Positions 1 to 9,539 are shown, numbered from the stretch's first letter. The stretch: 64,000 nt of DNA from a virus (IMGVR_UViG_3300042375_000684), one strand, 5' to 3'. Notes: generated by a model not told the origin, from the sequence alone. Translations and numbers: made by a program.

Positions 1-528
1 TTCCAAGGTCAAGGTGACTTCCTTTCTAAATTTGGTCTGGAAATTCGTGACCAGGTTACATTCACTGTTGCATATAGAACATTCGAGAGATTTGCAACAA
101 AAGATAATCCTGCATTAATAAGACCAAAAGAAGGCGATTTGGTCTACATGCCTATGAACAATAAGTTCTTTAAGGTTATGTTTGTAGAACACGAATCAGT
201 ATTCTATCAGGCTGGAGCATTACAGGTTTATGATCTTAAATGTGAACTATTTGAATATTCCAATGAGAGATTTGAAACTGGTGTTGATGATGTTGATAAA
301 CATTATGTTGATTTTAAAACAACCGAAATTAACAATCTTGAAGATATGTTTGCAGCAGACCCAATTGCTAAAAATATCTTCTATGAAGAAAAAGGTAATG
401 ATATTATAGACTTTACCGAAATTGATCCATTCAGCGAGACAATATTCCCACCATCGAACTATTTTGTAACAGCAGATTCAACTAAGGTAACCGCCGACGA
501 CGGTGGCATTACTGCAGATACTATATAA
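1..528 (+). CDS. gp14: Neck protein gp14 (5'-truncated by window edge)
   Basis: Frame is open from base 1 (FQGQGDFLSKFGLEIRDQVTF...RPKEGDLVYMP...YDLKCELFEYSNE), typical gp14 motifs; lies upstream of gp15. Confidence 0.9.
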   Translation, partial: FQGQGDFLSKFGLEIRDQVTFTVAYRTFERFATKDNPALIRPKEGDLVYMPMNNKFFKVMFVEHESVFYQAGALQVYDLKCELFEYSNERFETGVDDVDKHYVDFKTTEINNLEDMFAADPIAKNIFYEEKGNDIIDFTEIDPFSETIFPPSNYFVTADSTKVTADDGGITADTI

Positions 529-537
529 GAGGAACAA

Positions 538-1890
538 ATGGCTAAACAAACCATCAATATAGGAACTACGGCCAATGACCGTACCGGTGATCCTTTAAGA
601 ACCGCATTTACTAAAACAAATAGTAACTTTACTGAACTATATGCAAATGTCGCAACATTGAATAGTTCTGTAGTCACTGATGTTTCGGATTTAACTGATA
701 CTGAAGGATTATTTTTCTCTGGTGATTATAGAGATCTTTCCAATACCCCATTTATCGGTACAGATGTTTCAGATTTAACTGATACTGAAGGGTTACTTTT
801 CTCCGGCGACTATGATGATCTTTTCAATACTCCATTTATTGCAACTGATATATTAGATTTAACAGATAATAATAATCTATTAACTGTAAAAGATCATATT
901 GAGTTAACTGGTATATATCAAACATCCAATAACATCATTTCATTTACAAAAGCACCAAATACAGATTCAAATACAGTCTTTGATACGATATCTGAATATG
1001 TAATTCTTACAAGAGATGCATCTGGTATTGGTGGTCTGGGCGGCGGCATCTATAATAGTGCATTCGAAGTAGCCTATGATGTTGCCATAAGCCCAATATC
1101 AACAATATGGAATGCAGATGGCTGGGATGATGTATCAGATATTGAAACAAGATATTATCAAACTTTCAGACAGGCACTTCGCAATAGCGTAGGTGCAAAT
1201 ATTGTTGGTGCTGAACTTATTATGAAGGATACAGCAAGTAACGAATATTACAAGATTAAATTTTCTCAATGGGCACAGGGTGCTAGTCACGACGGCAGTT
1301 TTGCATATACAAGAGAGAAAATAGATACTACTACACCTATCGGAATTACATTCTATGATGGATCTACATTACCGAAAGCACCAAATACAAAACCAAAATT
1401 TGAACAATCATATGTAGGTGATTTTGGAGGATATGGCCTAACTATTTCACAAGCTGGTAGACAAGTTTATATTTATGATAATATTGTAGAAATTCCTAGT
1501 TACAATGAGCAAAACTTTAAAATTGGTGATGTAATTCAAATTATTACTGGTGGCTTTGCATCAACTATAAGACCTAAAGTAAATGACGATATCGAATTAC
1601 CAGATGCTACTCTCTATATTCAAGGTGAAACAAATTCTGTAGCATCTTTTGATATACCAGCAAGATCTATGGCTTTTCTTAGTAAAATTGCTCAAAATAT
1701 TTGGCAACTTTCTATAAGTAATTCTTCAGTTATAAAAAATGATTTAGCACCAAACACAAGCATAGGTGATAGCACAGATGTAGAAGGTATAGTTGCGTTT
1801 GATTCTACTTATTTCTATTACTGTACTTCAGACTATACCGGATCTGATAATATTTGGAAACGAATTGCTTGGAGCAATGATACCTGGTAA
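538..1890 (+). CDS. Virion structural/fibre-like protein inserted between gp14 and gp15
   Basis: N-terminal KQTINIGTTANDRTGDPLRTAF motif (shared by T4-like baseplate/fibre proteins), internal 28-aa repeats, C-terminal AFDSTYFYYC..WKRIAW module. Confidence 0.65.
   Translation: MAKQTINIGTTANDRTGDPLRTAFTKTNSNFTELYANVATLNSSVVTDVSDLTDTEGLFFSGDYRDLSNTPFIGTDVSDLTDTEGLLFSGDYDDLFNTPFIATDILDLTDNNNLLTVKDHIELTGIYQTSNNIISFTKAPNTDSNTVFDTISEYVILTRDASGIGGLGGGIYNSAFEVAYDVAISPISTIWNADGWDDVSDIETRYYQTFRQALRNSVGANIVGAELIMKDTASNEYYKIKFSQWAQGASHDGSFAYTREKIDTTTPIGITFYDGSTLPKAPNTKPKFEQSYVGDFGGYGLTISQAGRQVYIYDNIVEIPSYNEQNFKIGDVIQIITGGFASTIRPKVNDDIELPDATLYIQGETNSVASFDIPARSMAFLSKIAQNIWQLSISNSSVIKNDLAPNTSIGDSTDVEGIVAFDSTYFYYCTSDYTGSDNIWKRIAWSNDTW
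676..870 (+). repeat. 84-bp (28-aa) tandem repeat, about 2.3 copies, within the 450-aa protein
   Basis: TDVSDLTDTEGLFFSGDYRDLSNTPFIG / TDVSDLTDTEGLLFSGDYDDLFNTPFIA / TDILDLTD. Confidence 0.85.
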
Positions 1891-1900
1891 GGAACTTTAA

Positions 1901-2716
1901 ATGGCTTTTGTAAATTATTTTTATAATGCAACTACTAAAAAATACATAGCTCTTTTCGGAACTATGTTTAATAAAATTTCTATTGCACGTGATGATCCAA
2001 ATACTGGTGATGAAGTACAGCGTATGGTTGTGCCTATTTCATATGGCCCTTATCAAAAATTTCTTGCAAGAGTAAATCAAGATCCAGACTTAAATAGAAA
2101 AACTGCCATCACACTTCCTAGAATGGCTTTCGAGATAACAGGAATGGAATATGATGGTTCAAGGAAAGTTAATTCTGTAAGAAGAATTTCTGGTCAAACA
2201 CACAGTGATGATAAAAAAACATTTCAGTATGTTGGAACACCTTATAATCTGAATTTTACGCTTAGTATTATGACTAAGTATGCTGAAGATGGAACACAAA
2301 TATTAGAACAAATAATCCCTTTCTTTAAACCCGAATGGACTTACACTGTAAAGTTAATTGATAATCTTGATCCAATAGATATTCCACTAATTCTAAATTC
2401 CGTGAACATGGAAGATCTGTATGAGGCAGACTTTGAAACTAGAAGAAGTCTCTTATGGACTATTACATTTACAATGAAGGCTTGGTATTTTGGTCCACAG
2501 AGAGAAGGTAGTGTAATAAAGTTTATTGATATCAGATCGCACACCAAAATTGACACAACCGCAACACCAGAAGGTCAAATTACAATACAGCCTGGTTTAA
2601 CTGCAAATGGGCAACCAACAACATCACTTGATGAAACACTTGATTATGAACTTATTAATATTGATGATGATTGGGGAATAATTACAATTTTTAGAGATGA
2701 GATTGAGGTAACATAA
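1901..2716 (+). CDS. gp15: Tail sheath stabiliser/terminator gp15
   Basis: FGTMFNKI..., VPISYGPYQKFLAR, TLPRMAFE, QILEQIIPFFKP motifs; synteny. Confidence 0.92.
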   Translation: MAFVNYFYNATTKKYIALFGTMFNKISIARDDPNTGDEVQRMVVPISYGPYQKFLARVNQDPDLNRKTAITLPRMAFEITGMEYDGSRKVNSVRRISGQTHSDDKKTFQYVGTPYNLNFTLSIMTKYAEDGTQILEQIIPFFKPEWTYTVKLIDNLDPIDIPLILNSVNMEDLYEADFETRRSLLWTITFTMKAWYFGPQREGSVIKFIDIRSHTKIDTTATPEGQITIQPGLTANGQPTTSLDETLDYELINIDDDWGIITIFRDEIEVT

Positions 2717-3159
2717 TGAGTGATGATAAGATTGCAAATGCACTGGGTTTGAAGCCTCTAGCTGAAGTTTTAGATGCGACTGTAGAACCTTCAACTGAAC
2801 TTGCATTAGCAGATCCGGTTGAAATTGTCACTGTCATTGCAGAAGATAATGAAACTGTGAGAGATATTGAACAGGCAAGAGGTAATATAAAGAATATCAT
2901 TGAGCAAGGTGATGATGCACTTAAGGAAATGATGTCTCTTGCAAAACAATCCGAGAGTCCAAGGGCATTTGAAGTTGCTTCAACTTTGATGAAAACACTT
3001 TTGGATGCAAACAAAGACTTTGTTGAAATGTCTATGAAGAAAAAGTATGCAGTGGATGAAGTCAATGGACCAAAAGAAGCTGCTCAGACTAATGTGACAA
3101 ATAATAACTTGATTGTATCCACTGCGGATCTATTGAAAATGCTCAAAGGAGAAACTTGA
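2716..3159 (+). CDS. gp16: Terminase small subunit gp16
   Basis: ESPRAFEVASTLMKTLLDANKD and NVTNNNLIVSTADLLKML motifs; synteny. Confidence 0.88.
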   Translation: MSDDKIANALGLKPLAEVLDATVEPSTELALADPVEIVTVIAEDNETVRDIEQARGNIKNIIEQGDDALKEMMSLAKQSESPRAFEVASTLMKTLLDANKDFVEMSMKKKYAVDEVNGPKEAAQTNVTNNNLIVSTADLLKMLKGET

Positions 3160-3755
3160 TAATGACACCTGAAATGATTGAAGATTATAAAAGATGTATG
3201 GGTGATATTGAATACTTTGCTGAAAAACATATTAAAGTAAGACATGTAGAATTAGGTTTAGTACCTCTGAAATTAAACGAATTTCAAAGACAAGCTATTA
3301 AAGATTATAGCGAAAAGAATGTTTTTGCAAAATACGCAAATAGAATGGAAGGTAAAACTACTATTGCCGCTATTATTCTTTTACACCATGCAATCTTTAA
3401 TCAATATAGAGTAAGTCTTATTATGGGTCCAAAGATGCAATCAAGTAATGAAGTGTTGGATCTAATTTATGATATGCACCAAAATCTTCCAGAACACATC
3501 CAAGCAAAAATTGTTACACATAATAAAACAAAACTAGAATTTGATAATATGTGTGCTATTATAAGTGGAGGCAGCAATACTCATCAAGGTAGAGGTAGAA
3601 CACTATCAAATATCTATATTGATGAAAGTGAATTTATGAATACTCTTGATGAAGTTTTTACTAATTTATATCCTTGTATCTCAACAGCAAATAAAGGTAA
3701 ACTTTTTGCATTCACTTCAACTAGAACTTCAGAATATTTTAGAGATCATAAATGA
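3156..3755 (+). CDS. Truncated terminase large subunit paralogue (ATPase domain only)
   Basis: Collinear with the gp17 N-domain: LNEFQ (Q motif), NRMEGKTT (Walker A), IYIDESEF (Walker B), FTST (coupling motif); stops 11 aa later with no nuclease domain. Confidence 0.75.
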   Translation: MIMTPEMIEDYKRCMGDIEYFAEKHIKVRHVELGLVPLKLNEFQRQAIKDYSEKNVFAKYANRMEGKTTIAAIILLHHAIFNQYRVSLIMGPKMQSSNEVLDLIYDMHQNLPEHIQAKIVTHNKTKLEFDNMCAIISGGSNTHQGRGRTLSNIYIDESEFMNTLDEVFTNLYPCISTANKGKLFAFTSTRTSEYFRDHK

Positions 3756-5377
3756 CAGATTCTGGCGGCTACTTAGGTAATTCACTTCTTAAAAAATCTG
3801 GTACTCCAATTGAATGGACTCCAGAAATGCTCAAGGAGTATATGAAATGTGCGGAAGATCCGATCTATTTTGCTGAACGGTATATTAAAATTGTTCACGT
3901 TGATCACGGGTTTATTCCAATTAAGTTATATGATTATCAAAAAGACATTATCAATGCAATTAGTAATAATAGACGAGTTGTAGCAAATACTTCTCGTCAG
4001 GCAGGTAAAACAACTACCGCTATGGCTATTATTTTGCACTATATATTGTTTAACGAATATAAAACTGTTGCACTTCTCGCCAATAAAGCAGCATCTGCTC
4101 TTGAAATTCTTAATCGCATCCAGATGGCATTCGAAGCATTACCTGGTTGGTTACAGCAAGGTGTTATCACTTGGAATAAAGGTTCTATGGAATTAGAAAA
4201 TGGTTGTAAGGTTATTGCCGCTGCATCATCTTCAAGTTCCATTCGTGGTAAATCTATCGCATTCCTATATATCGACGAAACTGCCTTCTTAAATAATTGG
4301 GAAGAGTTTTTTGCGTCCGTTTATCCTACCATTTCATCTGGTAAAGAAACAAAAATTCTATTGACATCCACTCCGAACTCTTTGAATCACTTCTGGAAAA
4401 TCTGTAAAGAGGCACAAGAAGAAATTGATGAAAGAGGCAGGGGCAAAAACGGTTATATCTATATTGAAGTTACTTGGGATAAAGTTCCAGGCAGAGATGA
4501 AGCATGGAAAGAAGATACACTTGCTTCTATTAGTTGGAATATGGAACAGTTTCAACAAGAATTTTGTGGATCATTCATCGGAAGTTCCAGCACTCTTATC
4601 TCCGGAAGTAAACTGAAAGAACTTTCATTCTCCACACCTTTGCATGAAGGTGAGGGAATTAAACAATATGCAACAGCAGTCAAGGGACATGCATATGCCA
4701 TGGTTGTTGACGTTTCAAGAGGCAAGGGCCTTGACTATTCTACATTCTCTGTTCTTGATATTACAACAATGCCGTATCAACAGGTTTGTACATTCAGAGA
4801 TAACTACATTGGCCCCGTAGATTACGCCAGCATTATCTACAGAATAGCAAAATTGTATAATGAGTCATCCGTATTAATTGAAATAAATGATATTGGTGGT
4901 CAAGTAGCTGACGTTCTCTACTTTGATTATGGTTACGAAAATATGCTATTTACTGAAAGTGCTGGTAGATCCGGAAAACGAATTTCAGGCGGTTTTGGTA
5001 AAAATATTGATAGAGGTATTAGAACAACAAAAACTGTAAAATCAATTGGTTGTTCCATATTGAAATTACTAGTAGAACAAAATCAAATACTGCTTAATGA
5101 CTTTGAAACTATACAAGAATTGGCCAGATTTGCTCGTAGAGGTCCTTCATACGAGGCAGAATCTGGCGCACATGATGATATGGTTATGACATTGGTACTT
5201 TTTGCTTGGTTAACTGACCAAACATTCTTTAAAGACATGACAGACATAAATACACTTGCAAAACTTCGTGAAAGAACAGAAGAAGAAATAGATGATTTTC
5301 TATTACCTTTTGGTTTTTATGATAATGGAAGTGATGACATTGAGCAGCCTATTTACATGAATCCAAATAATTGGTAA
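3752..5377 (+). CDS. gp17: Terminase large subunit gp17
   Basis: SRQAGKTT, LYIDETAF, LTSTPN, nuclease motifs VDVSRG and HDDMVM. Confidence 0.97.
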   Translation: MTDSGGYLGNSLLKKSGTPIEWTPEMLKEYMKCAEDPIYFAERYIKIVHVDHGFIPIKLYDYQKDIINAISNNRRVVANTSRQAGKTTTAMAIILHYILFNEYKTVALLANKAASALEILNRIQMAFEALPGWLQQGVITWNKGSMELENGCKVIAAASSSSSIRGKSIAFLYIDETAFLNNWEEFFASVYPTISSGKETKILLTSTPNSLNHFWKICKEAQEEIDERGRGKNGYIYIEVTWDKVPGRDEAWKEDTLASISWNMEQFQQEFCGSFIGSSSTLISGSKLKELSFSTPLHEGEGIKQYATAVKGHAYAMVVDVSRGKGLDYSTFSVLDITTMPYQQVCTFRDNYIGPVDYASIIYRIAKLYNESSVLIEINDIGGQVADVLYFDYGYENMLFTESAGRSGKRISGGFGKNIDRGIRTTKTVKSIGCSILKLLVEQNQILLNDFETIQELARFARRGPSYEAESGAHDDMVMTLVLFAWLTDQTFFKDMTDINTLAKLRERTEEEIDDFLLPFGFYDNGSDDIEQPIYMNPNNW

Positions 5378-5391
5378 CAAAACATCAAGTT

Positions 5392-5399
5392 TATAAATA
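5392..5399 (+). promoter_or_regulatory. T4-type late promoter TATAAATA for gp18
   Basis: Exact consensus 53 nt upstream of the gp18 start. Confidence 0.8.
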
Positions 5400-5451
5400 G
5401 AATTGAGATTTGAATTAAGAATAATCTTATTTTATAACAAAGGAGAAAAAT

Positions 5452-7320
5452 ATGGTTTTTTCTGTAAGCCCATCCGTAACAGTCCGTGAGGTTGATGCTA
5501 CAGCAACAATTCCAGCGATCGCAACTCCTCCTGCTGCAATCGCTGGTGTTTTTAGCTGGGGACCAACTAACGAAAGAATTCTAGTAACTTCTGAAAACGA
5601 GTTAGTTTCTCGTTTTGGGAAACCTACGGATTCTAACTTTGAAACATTCTTTACTGCAGCCGACTTTTTGTCGTATTCAAATGCACTATACGTTACTCGT
5701 GTAACAAGTGATGATGCTGCAATCGCGTCCGGCACATATTTTAATGCAAAACACCCAGGTGCATTAGGTAATTCCGTTGAAGTAGCATATGTAACAAGTT
5801 CCAGTGCATATGGCAATACTGCATTATTTGATACAGACCTAATTGAAAATGTAGATAATTCTGATATTATTGCTATTGGCACAAATACATTACAAATTAT
5901 CACAACAGAAAATGTTTCTGGTATTCTTTCTAATGGTGATATTATTGTAGTAGGTAATAATGATGTTGGTTATCAAAACCTAATAGTTAATACGTATACT
6001 GTTGCATCAGTAGTAGATACAGCAAACACAGCAAACACAGCAGACGATATTACAACATATACTTATACTATAAATCTAAAAAATAGATATTCACTACCAG
6101 TAACATCTTATCTTGATCTAACATATAAGAGATATTGGGGTCTTTCATATTTATTTAGTAATGCACCAACATCAGGTAATATGCACATTGTGGTTACAGA
6201 TAGAGATGGTGATATTACTGGTGTGGCAGATACTATTCTTGAAGTGTATGAAAACGTGTCAAAGACACCATCTGCAAAACTTCAGGATGGGACAACAAAT
6301 TATTATGCAACAGTAATTGAAAACAAATCTGCTTGGATTATTGCTGATAGTACCGATAAATTAGATGGATCTGGAAATCTTTCTGGATATGAAAATCTGG
6401 CTGGAGGTCTCAATGGATCTAATGAGGCATCAATACCGTTTGGTAAAGTTGCACTTGGTTATGATCTTTATAAAGACTCTGCAGATGTTGATATTGCTTT
6501 TGTTCTTCAAGGTAAAGCAGTAAATGCAAATATTTCAAACTATATTGTTCAAAATATTGCCGAAAGAAGAAAAGATTGTGTTGCATTCATTTCACCTACT
6601 GCTGCAGCTGCCGTAGCACCATCTAATCCGATAGATAAGATGAATGCAGTTATTGCATTCAGATCACTTGTTCAAAATTCATCTTACTTCTTCATGGACT
6701 CCGGCTATAAATACCGTTATGATAAGTATAATGACGTATATCGTTGGGTACCATTAAATGGAGATATGGCAGGTCTTTGCTCTCGTATCACTCCATGGGA
6801 ATCACCAGCTGGTTATAAGCGTGGTATCATCAAGAATGTTGTAAAACTTGCTTTTAATCCAAATAAAGAACAACGTGATCAACTATACGGAAATGATATC
6901 AATCCAGTTGTTTCTCAAGTAGGTCAAGGTATCCTTCTATTCGGTGATAAGACTGGTCTTGGAACTGCTACAGGTAGTGCATTCACTCGTATTAACGTGC
7001 GCCGTCTATTCATTACAGTCGAAAAGGCAATTGCAACAACTGCTGCTTCATTCCTATTCGACTTCAATGATGAGTTCACTCAGACACAGTTTAGAAACTC
7101 AGTAGAACCATTCCTAAGAGATATCCAGGGAAGAAGAGGTATCATAGACTTTAGAGTAATTTCCGATTCTACTGTAAATACTCCTGATGTTATTGATAGA
7201 AATACATTTAGAGGAAATATTTTCATCAAACCTAGTAGAACCATTAACTTTATCGAACTTACATTTGTCGCTACTAGAACAGGTGTTGAATTTGATGAAA
7301 TTATCGGCCAGGCTCTTTAA
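5452..7320 (+). CDS. gp18: Tail sheath protein gp18
   Basis: SPSVTVREVD, FMDSGYKYRYDKYND, ESPAGYKRG, RINVRRLF motifs. Confidence 0.97.
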   Translation: MVFSVSPSVTVREVDATATIPAIATPPAAIAGVFSWGPTNERILVTSENELVSRFGKPTDSNFETFFTAADFLSYSNALYVTRVTSDDAAIASGTYFNAKHPGALGNSVEVAYVTSSSAYGNTALFDTDLIENVDNSDIIAIGTNTLQIITTENVSGILSNGDIIVVGNNDVGYQNLIVNTYTVASVVDTANTANTADDITTYTYTINLKNRYSLPVTSYLDLTYKRYWGLSYLFSNAPTSGNMHIVVTDRDGDITGVADTILEVYENVSKTPSAKLQDGTTNYYATVIENKSAWIIADSTDKLDGSGNLSGYENLAGGLNGSNEASIPFGKVALGYDLYKDSADVDIAFVLQGKAVNANISNYIVQNIAERRKDCVAFISPTAAAAVAPSNPIDKMNAVIAFRSLVQNSSYFFMDSGYKYRYDKYNDVYRWVPLNGDMAGLCSRITPWESPAGYKRGIIKNVVKLAFNPNKEQRDQLYGNDINPVVSQVGQGILLFGDKTGLGTATGSAFTRINVRRLFITVEKAIATTAASFLFDFNDEFTQTQFRNSVEPFLRDIQGRRGIIDFRVISDSTVNTPDVIDRNTFRGNIFIKPSRTINFIELTFVATRTGVEFDEIIGQAL

Positions 7321-7326
7321 TAAATA
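7319..7326 (+). promoter_or_regulatory. Late promoter variant AATAAATA for gp19
   Basis: One mismatch to consensus, 25 nt upstream of the gp19 start; the same variant recurs at 37214 and 62166. Confidence 0.55.
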
Positions 7327-7350
7327 AAGACATAACAAGGAGTTTCAAAA

Positions 7351-7887
7351 ATGGCATTTTCAATAAATGAATTCAAATCACAATTAGTAGGAGGGGGTGC
7401 TCGCAGCACCCTCTTCCAAGTACAAATAACAAATCCAATTCTTGGTATTGCAGACTTTAAAATACCTTTCATGGTAAAAACAGCAGCTATTCCAGAATCT
7501 TCAACTGGTATTATACCAGTTCCATATTTTGGAAGAATAATTAAATATGGCGGTGATAGAACATTCGGACCATGGCCTGTTACTATTATCAATGATGAAG
7601 ACTTTGCTGTTCGCAATGCAATGGAAGCTTGGTCAAATGCTATCAACTCGCATATTACTAACTTCAGAGCAGCACCATTTGACTATAAGGCACAAGCTCA
7701 AGTCACTCAGTATGGTAAAGATGGGAGTGTATTAAGAGAATATACATTTGAAGGTTTGTTCCCAACTTCAATTTCAACTATTGATCTTTCATGGCAAGCA
7801 CAAGACCAAATTGAAGAATTTAGTGTAACATTTGAATATGATCTTTGGAGAGTATCCGGCGGAGTTACTGGTAATTCTACCACGTAA
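7351..7887 (+). CDS. gp19: Tail tube protein gp19
   Basis: GGARSTLFQV, IPVPYFGRIIKYGGDRTF, IEEFSVTFEYD. Confidence 0.96.
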   Translation: MAFSINEFKSQLVGGGARSTLFQVQITNPILGIADFKIPFMVKTAAIPESSTGIIPVPYFGRIIKYGGDRTFGPWPVTIINDEDFAVRNAMEAWSNAINSHITNFRAAPFDYKAQAQVTQYGKDGSVLREYTFEGLFPTSISTIDLSWQAQDQIEEFSVTFEYDLWRVSGGVTGNSTT

Positions 7888-7907
7888 TTTATTAGAAGGA
7901 ATATAAT

Positions 7908-9539
7908 ATGAGATTATTTGGATTCGAGATCAAGCGACCAGATGATGATGTAAAAAATCAGCCAGTATCTTTTGCTGAGCCTTTAAATGATGATGGAGCT
8001 TTAACCGTAGGAGGTGCCGTTGGTGGCTCCTACGGTATGCTTTTGGATTTGGAAGGAACTGCAAAATCTGAAGCTGAACTTGTGACTCGCTATAGAGCTT
8101 TGACTATAAATCCAGAAATACAGCAAGCTATTGATGAAATTGTAAATGAATCTATCAGTGTTGATTCTCATGATAAGGTTGTCAACATAATTCTTGATGA
8201 AACAAATCTTCCGGATAAAGTCAAAGAAAAAATAAGTGAAGAATTTCAGAATATTTTACAACTTCTAGATTTTTCTAATAGTGCATATGAGATATTCACT
8301 AAATTCTATGTAGATGGCAGATTAAATTATCACGTTATTATAGATGAGAAAAATTTAAAAGAAGGTATCAAAGAACTTAGATATCTTGATCCAAGAAAAA
8401 TTAGACTCATTCGTGAAATGCAAAATGAACAAATAAAAGATCAAGCTAGCAATGCATTGGTAAAGAAGATCAAAAAGGAGTACTATATGTATTCTGAAAG
8501 TGGATTTGGTGCTAGTAAAGTATCAAATTATTCTTCATCAATACAAGGGCTAAAGATTGCTAAAGACGCAATTGTTAGAGTTACATCCGGTCTGCTAAAC
8601 GAGAATAATTCAGTAGTTCTTTCACACTTGCATAAGTCTATCAAGTCTCTCAACCAATTGAGAATATTGGAAGATGCTACTATTATCTATACAATGACAA
8701 GAGCACCAGAACGCAGAATTTTTTATGTTGACGTTGGTAACTTGCCAAAAGCAAAAGCTGAACAGTATCTACATGATATGATGGCTCGTCACAAGAATAG
8801 AGTGACGTATGATCCATCATCTGGTGAAATTAAAGATGATAGAAAAATGATGACTATGACCGAGGATTATTGGTTTCCAAGAAGAGAAGGCAATAATGCG
8901 ACCGAAGTGACTACACTAAATGGTGGATCTGGTTTAGGTGAAGATAAAAACCTTCCGTATTTTCAATCTAAACTATATAAATCGCTAAATGTCCCAGTTG
9001 CAAGGCTTCAACCGGAAACTATGTATTCATTCGGTCGAATGTCAGAAGTGACTCGCGAAGAATTAAAATTTGCTAAATTTATTAAAAGACTTCGCACAAG
9101 ATTTTCAATTCTATTTGATAGATGCCTTGAACGACAATTGGTTTTAAAGGGTGTTATTTCACCTGACGAATGGAAAGAAATTCAAAATAAAATCCGTTAT
9201 GACTTCATGAAGGATAACTATTTTGAAGAGTTGAAAGAAGCTGAAATACTTCGCGAAAAGCTTGAAACACTTCGCCAGATTGAGGAACAAATTGGTAAAT
9301 ACTTCTCTCGTGAATGGGTTGTCAAGAATGTTCTTTACATGCCAGAAGATGAATGGAAAGACATGAAGAAGCAAATTGATAAAGAAGCAAAAGAAGAGCC
9401 TCCTATTGACGATATGCCTCAAGATAGTCAAGGTGCAGCTCCACCACAGCCGCCACAAGATGATCAACCTACAGAAGAAGGTTTGACCGTTATAAATAGA
9501 AAAAATCTTACTAATTTTTCAAAAAGGGCTCAAAAATGA
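7908..9539 (+). CDS. gp20: Portal protein gp20
   Basis: YVDGRL, IYTMTRAPERRIFYVDVGNLPK, EDYWFPRREG. Confidence 0.97.
   Translation: MRLFGFEIKRPDDDVKNQPVSFAEPLNDDGALTVGGAVGGSYGMLLDLEGTAKSEAELVTRYRALTINPEIQQAIDEIVNESISVDSHDKVVNIILDETNLPDKVKEKISEEFQNILQLLDFSNSAYEIFTKFYVDGRLNYHVIIDEKNLKEGIKELRYLDPRKIRLIREMQNEQIKDQASNALVKKIKKEYYMYSESGFGASKVSNYSSSIQGLKIAKDAIVRVTSGLLNENNSVVLSHLHKSIKSLNQLRILEDATIIYTMTRAPERRIFYVDVGNLPKAKAEQYLHDMMARHKNRVTYDPSSGEIKDDRKMMTMTEDYWFPRREGNNATEVTTLNGGSGLGEDKNLPYFQSKLYKSLNVPVARLQPETMYSFGRMSEVTREELKFAKFIKRLRTRFSILFDRCLERQLVLKGVISPDEWKEIQNKIRYDFMKDNYFEELKEAEILREKLETLRQIEEQIGKYFSREWVVKNVLYMPEDEWKDMKKQIDKEAKEEPPIDDMPQDSQGAAPPQPPQDDQPTEEGLTVINRKNLTNFSKRAQK

Follow-up and report, generated by a model that had tools for sequence, protein, structure and literature searches.

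What does a marine T4-like phage gain from encoding, between the genes of its small and large terminase subunits, a second and much shorter protein that resembles the large subunit? The question is raised by a stretch of 64,000 nucleotides (the window) that is part of a 137-kb IMG/VR virus record (IMGVR_UViG_3300042375_000684) of a marine T4-like myovirus. Positions 1901-7320 encode a module consisting of gp15 (tail sheath stabiliser), gp16, the additional protein (here X), gp17 and gp18. Gene 16, for the small terminase, lies at 2716..3159 on the + strand (147 aa; Pfam PF11053 DNA_Packaging, E 1.7e-7; phrog_445 'terminase small subunit', E 2.5e-26). The full-length large terminase, gp17, is encoded at 3752..5377 on the same strand (541 aa; Terminase_6N, E 2.9e-24, and Terminase_6C, E 1.9e-5). 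Between them, X is encoded at 3162..3755 (+, 197 aa) and is assigned by BLASTP, by its match to phrog_5989 and by an AlphaFold2 model as a stand-alone TerL ATPase-core paralogue of the gp17.2 / phrog_5989 family.

A sequence-only reading of the window had described X as an ORF of 199 aa, from 3156 to 3755, overlapping each neighbour by 4 nt. The ORF is real and lies on the + strand, and the overlap with gp17 is correct, where the X stop codon (3753-3755) and the gp17 start share the four bases ATGA. The start required correction. The TTG at 3156 is in frame with an ATG at 3162 and would overlap gp16. The gp16/X junctions of three related loci (L004, L016 and L019) share the CTTGATAATG arrangement and the context GGAGAAACTTGATAATG, where gp16 ends with TTGA and X starts at the ATG two bases further on; the TTG at 3156 falls within the end of gp16 in all three. 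Because this context is shared, we set the start of X at ATG 3162. The conserved ATG lies 2 nt 3' of the gp16 stop, so the overlap with gp16 is lost, and 10 nt 3' of a Shine-Dalgarno-like AGGAG (3147..3151, +) read from the sequence; GGAGAAACTTGATAATG also surrounds the AGGAG and the X start in L016 and L019.

Neither a T4-type late promoter (TATAAATA) nor a terminator-like site was found between gp15, gp16, X and gp17, and the first TATAAATA occurs at 5392, ahead of gp18. X therefore looks co-transcribed with the terminase genes; it also looks like a late gene that is translationally coupled to gp17. The box ahead of gp18 (5392-5399) is ~50 nt upstream of that gene, and the window contains 10 such boxes where 4.4 are expected by chance. 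Upstream of gp15, at 538-1890, is a 450-aa ORF with a near-perfect tandem peptide repeat (…TDVSDLTDTEGLFFSGDYRDLSNTPFIG / TDVSDLTDTEGLLFSGDYDDLFNTPFIA…). Its slot varies among relatives, which carry a version with 38-67% identity or lack the ORF.

Two explanations for a partial terminase gene at this position were rejected. Fusion of X to gp17 by programmed frameshifting is ruled out, as the gp17 frame has a TAA (3749-3751) immediately before its ATG and the X/gp17 junctions of relatives differ (ATGA, TGATG, TAATG, TAAATAATG), with no common slippery site. X is also not, in the window, an exon of a split or intron-containing gene 17, as gp17 is complete alone, with both domains. Rfam introns or other RNA families were absent from positions 1-9000 of the window and from two relatives (L008 and L018).

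Residues 1-190 of X align with residues 22-210 of the downstream gp17 (BLASTP: 36% identity and 61% positives over 190 residues), and the E-value of 8e-44 is well past chance. This bears out the earlier by-eye alignment to gp17 residues ~20-210. The best-matching PHROG is phrog_5989 'terminase large subunit' (E 3.5e-39). X scores 32.3 bits (cut-off 22; E 1e-7) against Pfam PF03237 Terminase_6N, covering profile positions 9-105 of 215. Pfam identifies Terminase_6N alone in X, and Terminase_6N plus Terminase_6C in gp17; X has no NCBIfam match. The AlphaFold2 model of X, built with 35 homologues, has a mean pLDDT of 88.1 and a pTM of 0.86. The structures closest to it are those of the T4 gp17 ATPase domain (Foldseek E 4e-18, TMq 0.86-0.88); alignment with 2o0j gives a Z of 22.9 and an rmsd of 2.3 Å over 196 residues at 31% identity (VIA-align).

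The four motif pairs quoted from the sequence for X and gp17 (LNEFQ/LYDYQ, NRMEGKTT/SRQAGKTT, IYIDESEF/LYIDETAF and FTST/LTSTP) are as described. In an alignment of 35 X homologues, Q42, R61, G64, K65, T66, T67, Y152, D154, E155 and S186 are invariant or at least 90% conserved. The Q (adenine-binding) motif is F41-Q42 (3282..3287, +), whose invariant Q42 aligns with Q143 of T4 gp17. Walker A is R61-M-E-G64-K65-T66-T67 (3342..3362, +) and aligns with T4 SRQLGKTT; here R61 and G64 are invariant, and K65, T66 and T67 are conserved in at least 90% of sequences. Walker B and the catalytic Glu lie in Y152-I-D154-E155-S156-E157 (3615..3632, +), with Y152, D154 and E155 invariant; their T4 gp17 counterparts are MIYID followed by the catalytic E256. 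S156 and E157 are 91-95% conserved in X, where gp17 has (T/V)-A. The resulting signature YIDESE[F/W], with Glu instead of the gp17 Ala two residues past the catalytic Glu, is specific to X. The coupling (C) motif is T185-S186-T187 (3714..3722, +); S186 is 95% conserved and the motif aligns with T286-T287 (TTT) of T4 gp17. A candidate inter-subunit arginine occurs in R144-G145 (3591..3596, +), the counterpart of an 'RG' that in gp17 lies 11 residues ahead of the catalytic Glu. G145 is conserved in at least 90% of sequences, and position 144 is R or K in most members of the X family and lost in two (P0060 and L010). By analogy with R139 of P74-26 TerL, R144 may be an arginine finger. Among ~55 cluster representatives, Walker B or catalytic residues are degenerate in three alone (P0068, P0075 and P0096).

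These comparisons make X a diverged paralogue of the gp17 ATPase core that retains every residue needed for ATP binding and hydrolysis. The model describes a foldable Rossmann ATPase core whose active site is intact.

X ends ~10 residues past the coupling-motif strand and thus lacks ~80 residues of the ATPase domain as well as the nuclease domain. The Terminase_6N match in gp17 spans residues 79-289, and after the C motif gp17 has ~80 more ATPase-domain residues than X. X does not amount to a complete ATPase domain (Rossmann core plus the NsubII side). The C-terminal RNase H-like nuclease/translocase domain is also missing: there is no Terminase_6C match and the protein ends at residue 197. 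The earlier statement that X stops after the coupling motif and has no nuclease was therefore accurate. The term 'ATPase-only' holds for the ATPase core and is slightly generous for the domain, given that X corresponds to the Rossmann (NsubI-like) core.

Six residues that are invariant in gp17 (n = 19 gp17 sequences) are free to vary in X (R76, Q85, K114, R124, E130 and K203). Because these gp17-invariant surface residues are not kept, X is not simply a second motor subunit. There is no informative difference in pI or net charge between X and the homologous segment of gp17. T4 makes short forms of gp17 (gp17' and gp17'') from internal starts, giving more than one gene-17-derived polypeptide per infected cell. 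Those forms are N-terminally truncated products of the same gene, whereas X is a separate, diverged gene in which the N-terminal core is kept and the C-terminal parts are gone.

The T4 structures indicate what the truncation may mean. In T4 gp17, ATP occupies the cleft that separates NsubI, the Rossmann subdomain, from the smaller NsubII, and NsubII together with the hinge forms the 'transmission' to the C-domain (PMC9958956). X shares with the T4 gp17 ATPase domain (PDB 2O0H/2O0J; PF03237) the fold and the Q, Walker A, Walker B/Glu and C motifs, starts from T4 residue 102 and matches 196 of the ~259 residues up to residue 360. Unlike T4 gp17, it lacks the segment after the C motif, with its contribution to the ATP cleft and its link to the C-domain, lacks the nuclease domain, has lost several gp17-invariant residues and has its own YIDESE[FW] signature. 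In T4 gp17 terms, X is essentially the 'engine' alone. Given the missing coupling segment and nuclease/translocase domain, we infer that X cannot be a DNA-translocating subunit and cannot translocate or cut DNA.

X is under purifying selection. For close pairs, the dN/dS of X is 0.14-0.35 by the Nei-Gojobori method (NG86) and 0.01-0.17 by maximum likelihood (ML), compared with 0.004-0.04 for the homologous part of gp17. Between the window and L019, dS is similar for X and the gp17 core (1.17 and 1.09), and dN is 0.306 for X versus 0.015 for the gp17 core, a ~20-fold difference. In comparisons with L004, L016 and L019, no other gene of the module is as divergent as X: identity to the window is 58-63% for X, 81-86% for gp15, 80-86% for gp16, 95-96% for the N-terminal half of gp17, 83-92% for its C-terminal half and 76-81% for gp18. 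The identities of X track neither neighbour, and thus give no sign of co-variation with gp16 or gp17. None of the 14 X-bearing loci (the window, Sinorhizobium phage phiM12 and 12 further metagenomic loci) has a frameshifted copy. A decaying pseudogene is ruled out by the dN/dS of 0.12-0.35, the intact frames in these loci and the invariance of catalytic residues among the 35 homologues. The proposal, made from the sequence, that X reflects selection and not decay is upheld on the same grounds, and X is evidently a real protein-coding gene under purifying selection.

The family to which X belongs is large. A word-indexed search recovered 60 homologues with 40-100% identity, all of 193-207 aa save one fragment of 110 aa. 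A profile search run exhaustively against 1.84 billion cluster representatives recovered at least 45 clusters (50% identity) of relatives with 178-215 aa, counting those that scored above or among gp17 proteins. X-like proteins fused to other domains were absent from the top hits of that search; the long hits are gp17-type proteins in which the match begins near residue 20. Among 50,697 records of cultured phages, an X-type gene was found in the Sinorhizobium phages phiM12, phiM7, phiM19 and phiN3 alone.

The phiM12 protein, gp17.2 (AGR47745.1), is annotated as 'terminase DNA packaging enzyme large subunit; gp17.2'. It resembles X in its slot between gp16 and gp17, its size (196 aa), its end just after the coupling motif and its canonical Walker A and B. 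X and gp17.2 also have the same best PHROG, with an E-value of 1.5e-73 for gp17.2 against phrog_5989. Unlike X, gp17.2 is from a soil rhizobiophage and not a marine phage, and it sits on a long branch, with 28% identity to X (and 34% to its own gp17); the gp17 proteins of the window and phiM12 are 58% identical. In an ML tree of the shared region, all X proteins and gp17.2 form one clade apart from every gp17 (support 87/97), and the marine X proteins form a clade with support of 99/96. Placement of gp17.2 as sister to the gp17 of phiM12 is not rejected by the AU test (p 0.10). A single origin of X and gp17.2 would be the simpler reading because slot and truncation point are identical, and X probably arose once, by duplication of the 5' part of gene 17. 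A separate feature of phiM12 is that its gp17 (L001:3935-5563) has a deviant Walker A, SRQSAKTT, with Ala for the Gly before Lys; that Gly is present in the other gp17 proteins aligned, and gp17.2 has the canonical GKTT.

The phiM12 protein is known just from its annotation as a terminase large subunit, and no discussion or functional study of gp17.2 was found in the literature searched, a search whose reach did not extend to the phiM12 genome paper. The gp17.2 / phrog_5989 family is thus already annotated and, as far as we found, uncharacterised. What is new here is how large and diverse the family proves to be in metagenomes, the contrast in rate with gp17, the behaviour of the gene as a cassette and the demonstration that it is optional.

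Wherever X occurs, its place is fixed: the order gp16-X-gp17 and the tight junctions are kept in all 14 X-bearing loci, so the synteny that the sequence-only reading proposed to look for is found, and yet X is optional. We scanned 80 viral contigs recruited by a gp17 59-95% identical to that of the window. X is present in one of them, the already known L004, and in ~70 the gp16 stop abuts or overlaps the gp17 start (gap of -14 to +2 nt). Three X-less loci (L027-L029) have the junction GGTGAATAATG and gp17 proteins 94-97% identical to those of X carriers. L027, which lacks X, has a gp17 97.0% identical to that of L019, which carries it; for X-less L031 and X-bearing L015 the gp17 identity is 92.6%. 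Only six gp17 columns have no residue in common between X-bearing and X-less sets; none is in a motif, and one of the six is an extra pre-start residue of the X-less rows. A complete relative with terminal repeats (G001, 194,645 bp) encodes gp17 and has no X anywhere. The loci found with X as the query suggest a core gene of the clade, an idea that the gp17-seeded scan and G001 contradict. Because near-identical operons and a complete genome lack it, X is dispensable, with repeated losses or gains.

Other insertions were observed at this junction and within gene 17. In the relatives L032 (2299-2995) and L033 (gp17 74% identical), a free-standing GIY-YIG-type homing endonuclease ORF, in a gap of 692 nt, replaces X between gp16 and gp17. 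In L105 (592-2503) and L106, gene 17 has two intein-like insertions, one inside Walker A (…RQAGK|CVSVD…SHN|TTTAV…) and the other after the RGKS that precedes Walker B (…IRGKS|CVTGD…). In L018 (4606-7385) and L008 (6576-9372), a GIY-YIG gene separates the ATPase part of gene 17 (293-299 aa) from the nuclease part (384-386 aa), an arrangement that may represent a split gene or an uncatalogued intron. The gp16|gp17 junction and gene 17 are hotspots for selfish elements.

X also moves between lineages. In sliding-window nucleotide comparisons of the window with L015, identity rises to 83-91% only at ~3150-3700, within X, and is mostly 60-80% in the flanks. In comparisons with L004, L016 and L019, it falls over the same interval to 57-80%, with flanks mostly at 75-93%. 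Between the window and L015, dS is 0.30 in X and ~2 in gp17. The window groups with L015 in the X tree, and with L004, L016 and L019 in the gp17 tree. From the sliding-window identities, the dS contrast with L015 and the discordant trees, it follows that X alleles have been swapped between lineages as a cassette, with breakpoints at the gene borders.

Our leading, and still tentative, explanation is that X is a non-essential, ATP-dependent modulator that acts on the soluble terminase. Encoded within a late gp15-gp16-X-gp17 operon and coupled in translation to gp17, X would bind ATP and, via putative interfaces on the conserved surfaces of the ATPase core, associate with gp17 and/or the gp16 ring. 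It would act in trans on the soluble terminase, and not as a DNA-translocating motor subunit, and might modulate assembly, ATPase firing or nuclease licensing at packaging initiation. X would then be a tuning factor and not a structural part of the motor. In T4, regulation of the ATPase and nuclease of gp17 at packaging initiation is a function of gp16 (PMC9958956). Consistent with a modulator are the homology and fold, the conserved catalytic residues, the purifying selection, the fixed position and the lack of an internal promoter or terminator. The sequence-only reading had proposed a packaging-motor regulator, a hetero-oligomer partner or a decoy for defences that sense terminase ATPases; the dispensability of X argues against an essential motor part. 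Against a modulator, most close relatives lack X and show no compensating change in gp17, and a few family members (the three representatives listed above) have degenerate Walker B or catalytic residues. Fast evolution and allele swapping would also not be expected of an intimately co-adapted partner, and sporadic distribution together with fast evolution is as typical of conflict genes as of tuning factors.

The main rival explanation, which we consider rather unlikely, is that X is itself such a conflict gene, a mimic of the terminase ATPase facing host sensors of the TerL ATPase domain (Avs1-3, Upx). It could be a competitive antagonist, could shield gp17 by masking it or, conversely, could be a secondary target, in which case the phage would escape by losing or varying it. 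The polymorphic presence of X among near-identical phages, its status as the fastest-evolving gene of the module (58-63% versus 76-96% for gp15, gp16, gp17 and gp18) and allele exchange limited to its borders would all fit, and coupling to gp17 translation would time a mimic rightly. The ATP-site residues reportedly contacted by Avs2 (bound ATP/Mg) are those conserved in X. The ATPase domain alone activates EcAvs2 and Upx (bioRxiv 10.64898/2026.04.30.721860), and a third partner that hides terminase from KpAvs2 has been the subject of speculation (PMC11564622). However, T4 vs.8 and Ksap2, the small TerL-like proteins known so far, have recently been found to trigger Avs2 and not to block it (bioRxiv 10.64898/2026.04.30.721860; PMC11564622), and a phage decoy that mimics a PAMP was not found in the papers searched. 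Hydrolysis, to which the strictly conserved catalytic Glu and coupling-motif Ser point, is needless for mimicry. The overall dN/dS of X is well below 1, and X has no match in PADLOC, which covers defence and not counter-defence proteins.

T4 vs.8 deserves separate comment. It reportedly has Walker A and B, is homologous to the ATPase domain of TerL, and on co-expression activates Avs2, with toxicity in the case of EcAvs2 (bioRxiv 10.64898/2026.04.30.721860). Like X, vs.8 (NP_049732, phrog_1488) is encoded by a T4-type phage as a separate ATPase-like protein of ~200 aa; unlike X, it lies at an early-gene locus between vs.7 and denV and belongs to a different PHROG. No similarity between the two was detectable (BLASTP E 11, hhalign probability 1.5%, no phrog_1488 hit for X), and no vs.8 homologue occurs in the genome of the window. 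Orthology of X with vs.8 is thus without support, and within reach of these tools vs.8 is an independent analogue of X and not a relative.

A more specific form of the conflict explanation, to which we assign a still lower probability, is that X and gp17.2 are a counter-measure or an immune-exposed accessory with respect to Avs1-3 and Upx, a PAMP mimic co-translated with TerL. X would occupy or blunt the sensor, or shield gp17, and its sporadic presence, rapid divergence and cassette swaps would reflect host-specific immune pressure. Since vs.8 and Ksap2 trigger Avs2, X may just as well be a liability, which phages would lose when immune pressure is exerted.

The remaining explanations are less likely than either a modulator or a conflict gene. 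Use of X against other phages is improbable; here it would be a dominant-negative 'poison' subunit directed at co-infecting relatives, whose terminase assemblies it would cap or disrupt. X would suit such a role as a truncated ATPase core that has kept its active site and a candidate inter-subunit Arg and has neither lid nor nuclease, and its polymorphic presence and divergent allele types would also fit. However, the gp17 ATPase cores of the phage and its relatives are 95-96% identical, which leaves no visible basis for distinguishing self from non-self, and we know of no precedent for a dominant-negative terminase weapon. The chance is similarly slim that X is a by-product, a partial duplicate of gene 17 generated by recombination or homing-endonuclease activity that brings the phage little or no benefit. 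Dispensability is consistent with this, as are the GIY-YIG endonuclease at the same junction (L032/L033) and the inteins (L105/L106) and split (L008/L018) in gene 17 of relatives, but X is intact in at least 45 clusters that have diverged below 50% identity, has no nuclease or mobility motif and, with its dN/dS of 0.12-0.35, invariant catalytic motifs and unshifted frames, bears the marks of selection. Finally, X as a third subunit that the terminase holoenzyme of this clade cannot do without, as might be supposed from the fixed slot between TerS and TerL, the translational coupling and the intact catalytic site, is effectively ruled out by the near-identical operons in which gp16 directly meets gp17 (~70 of the 80 gp17-seeded relatives, including L027-L029) and by the complete 194,645-bp genome with gp17 alone.

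The usual description of a viral packaging motor has two proteins, TerS and TerL. In many T4-like phages that infect marine and soil bacteria, an optional third protein, derived from TerL, is encoded between them. If X modulates the terminase, it would be a natural tool to dissect the control of ATPase firing and nuclease licensing when packaging starts. As phiM12 and its Sinorhizobium host are culturable, the question is directly testable. If X instead interacts with terminase-sensing immunity, it would represent a new kind of player.
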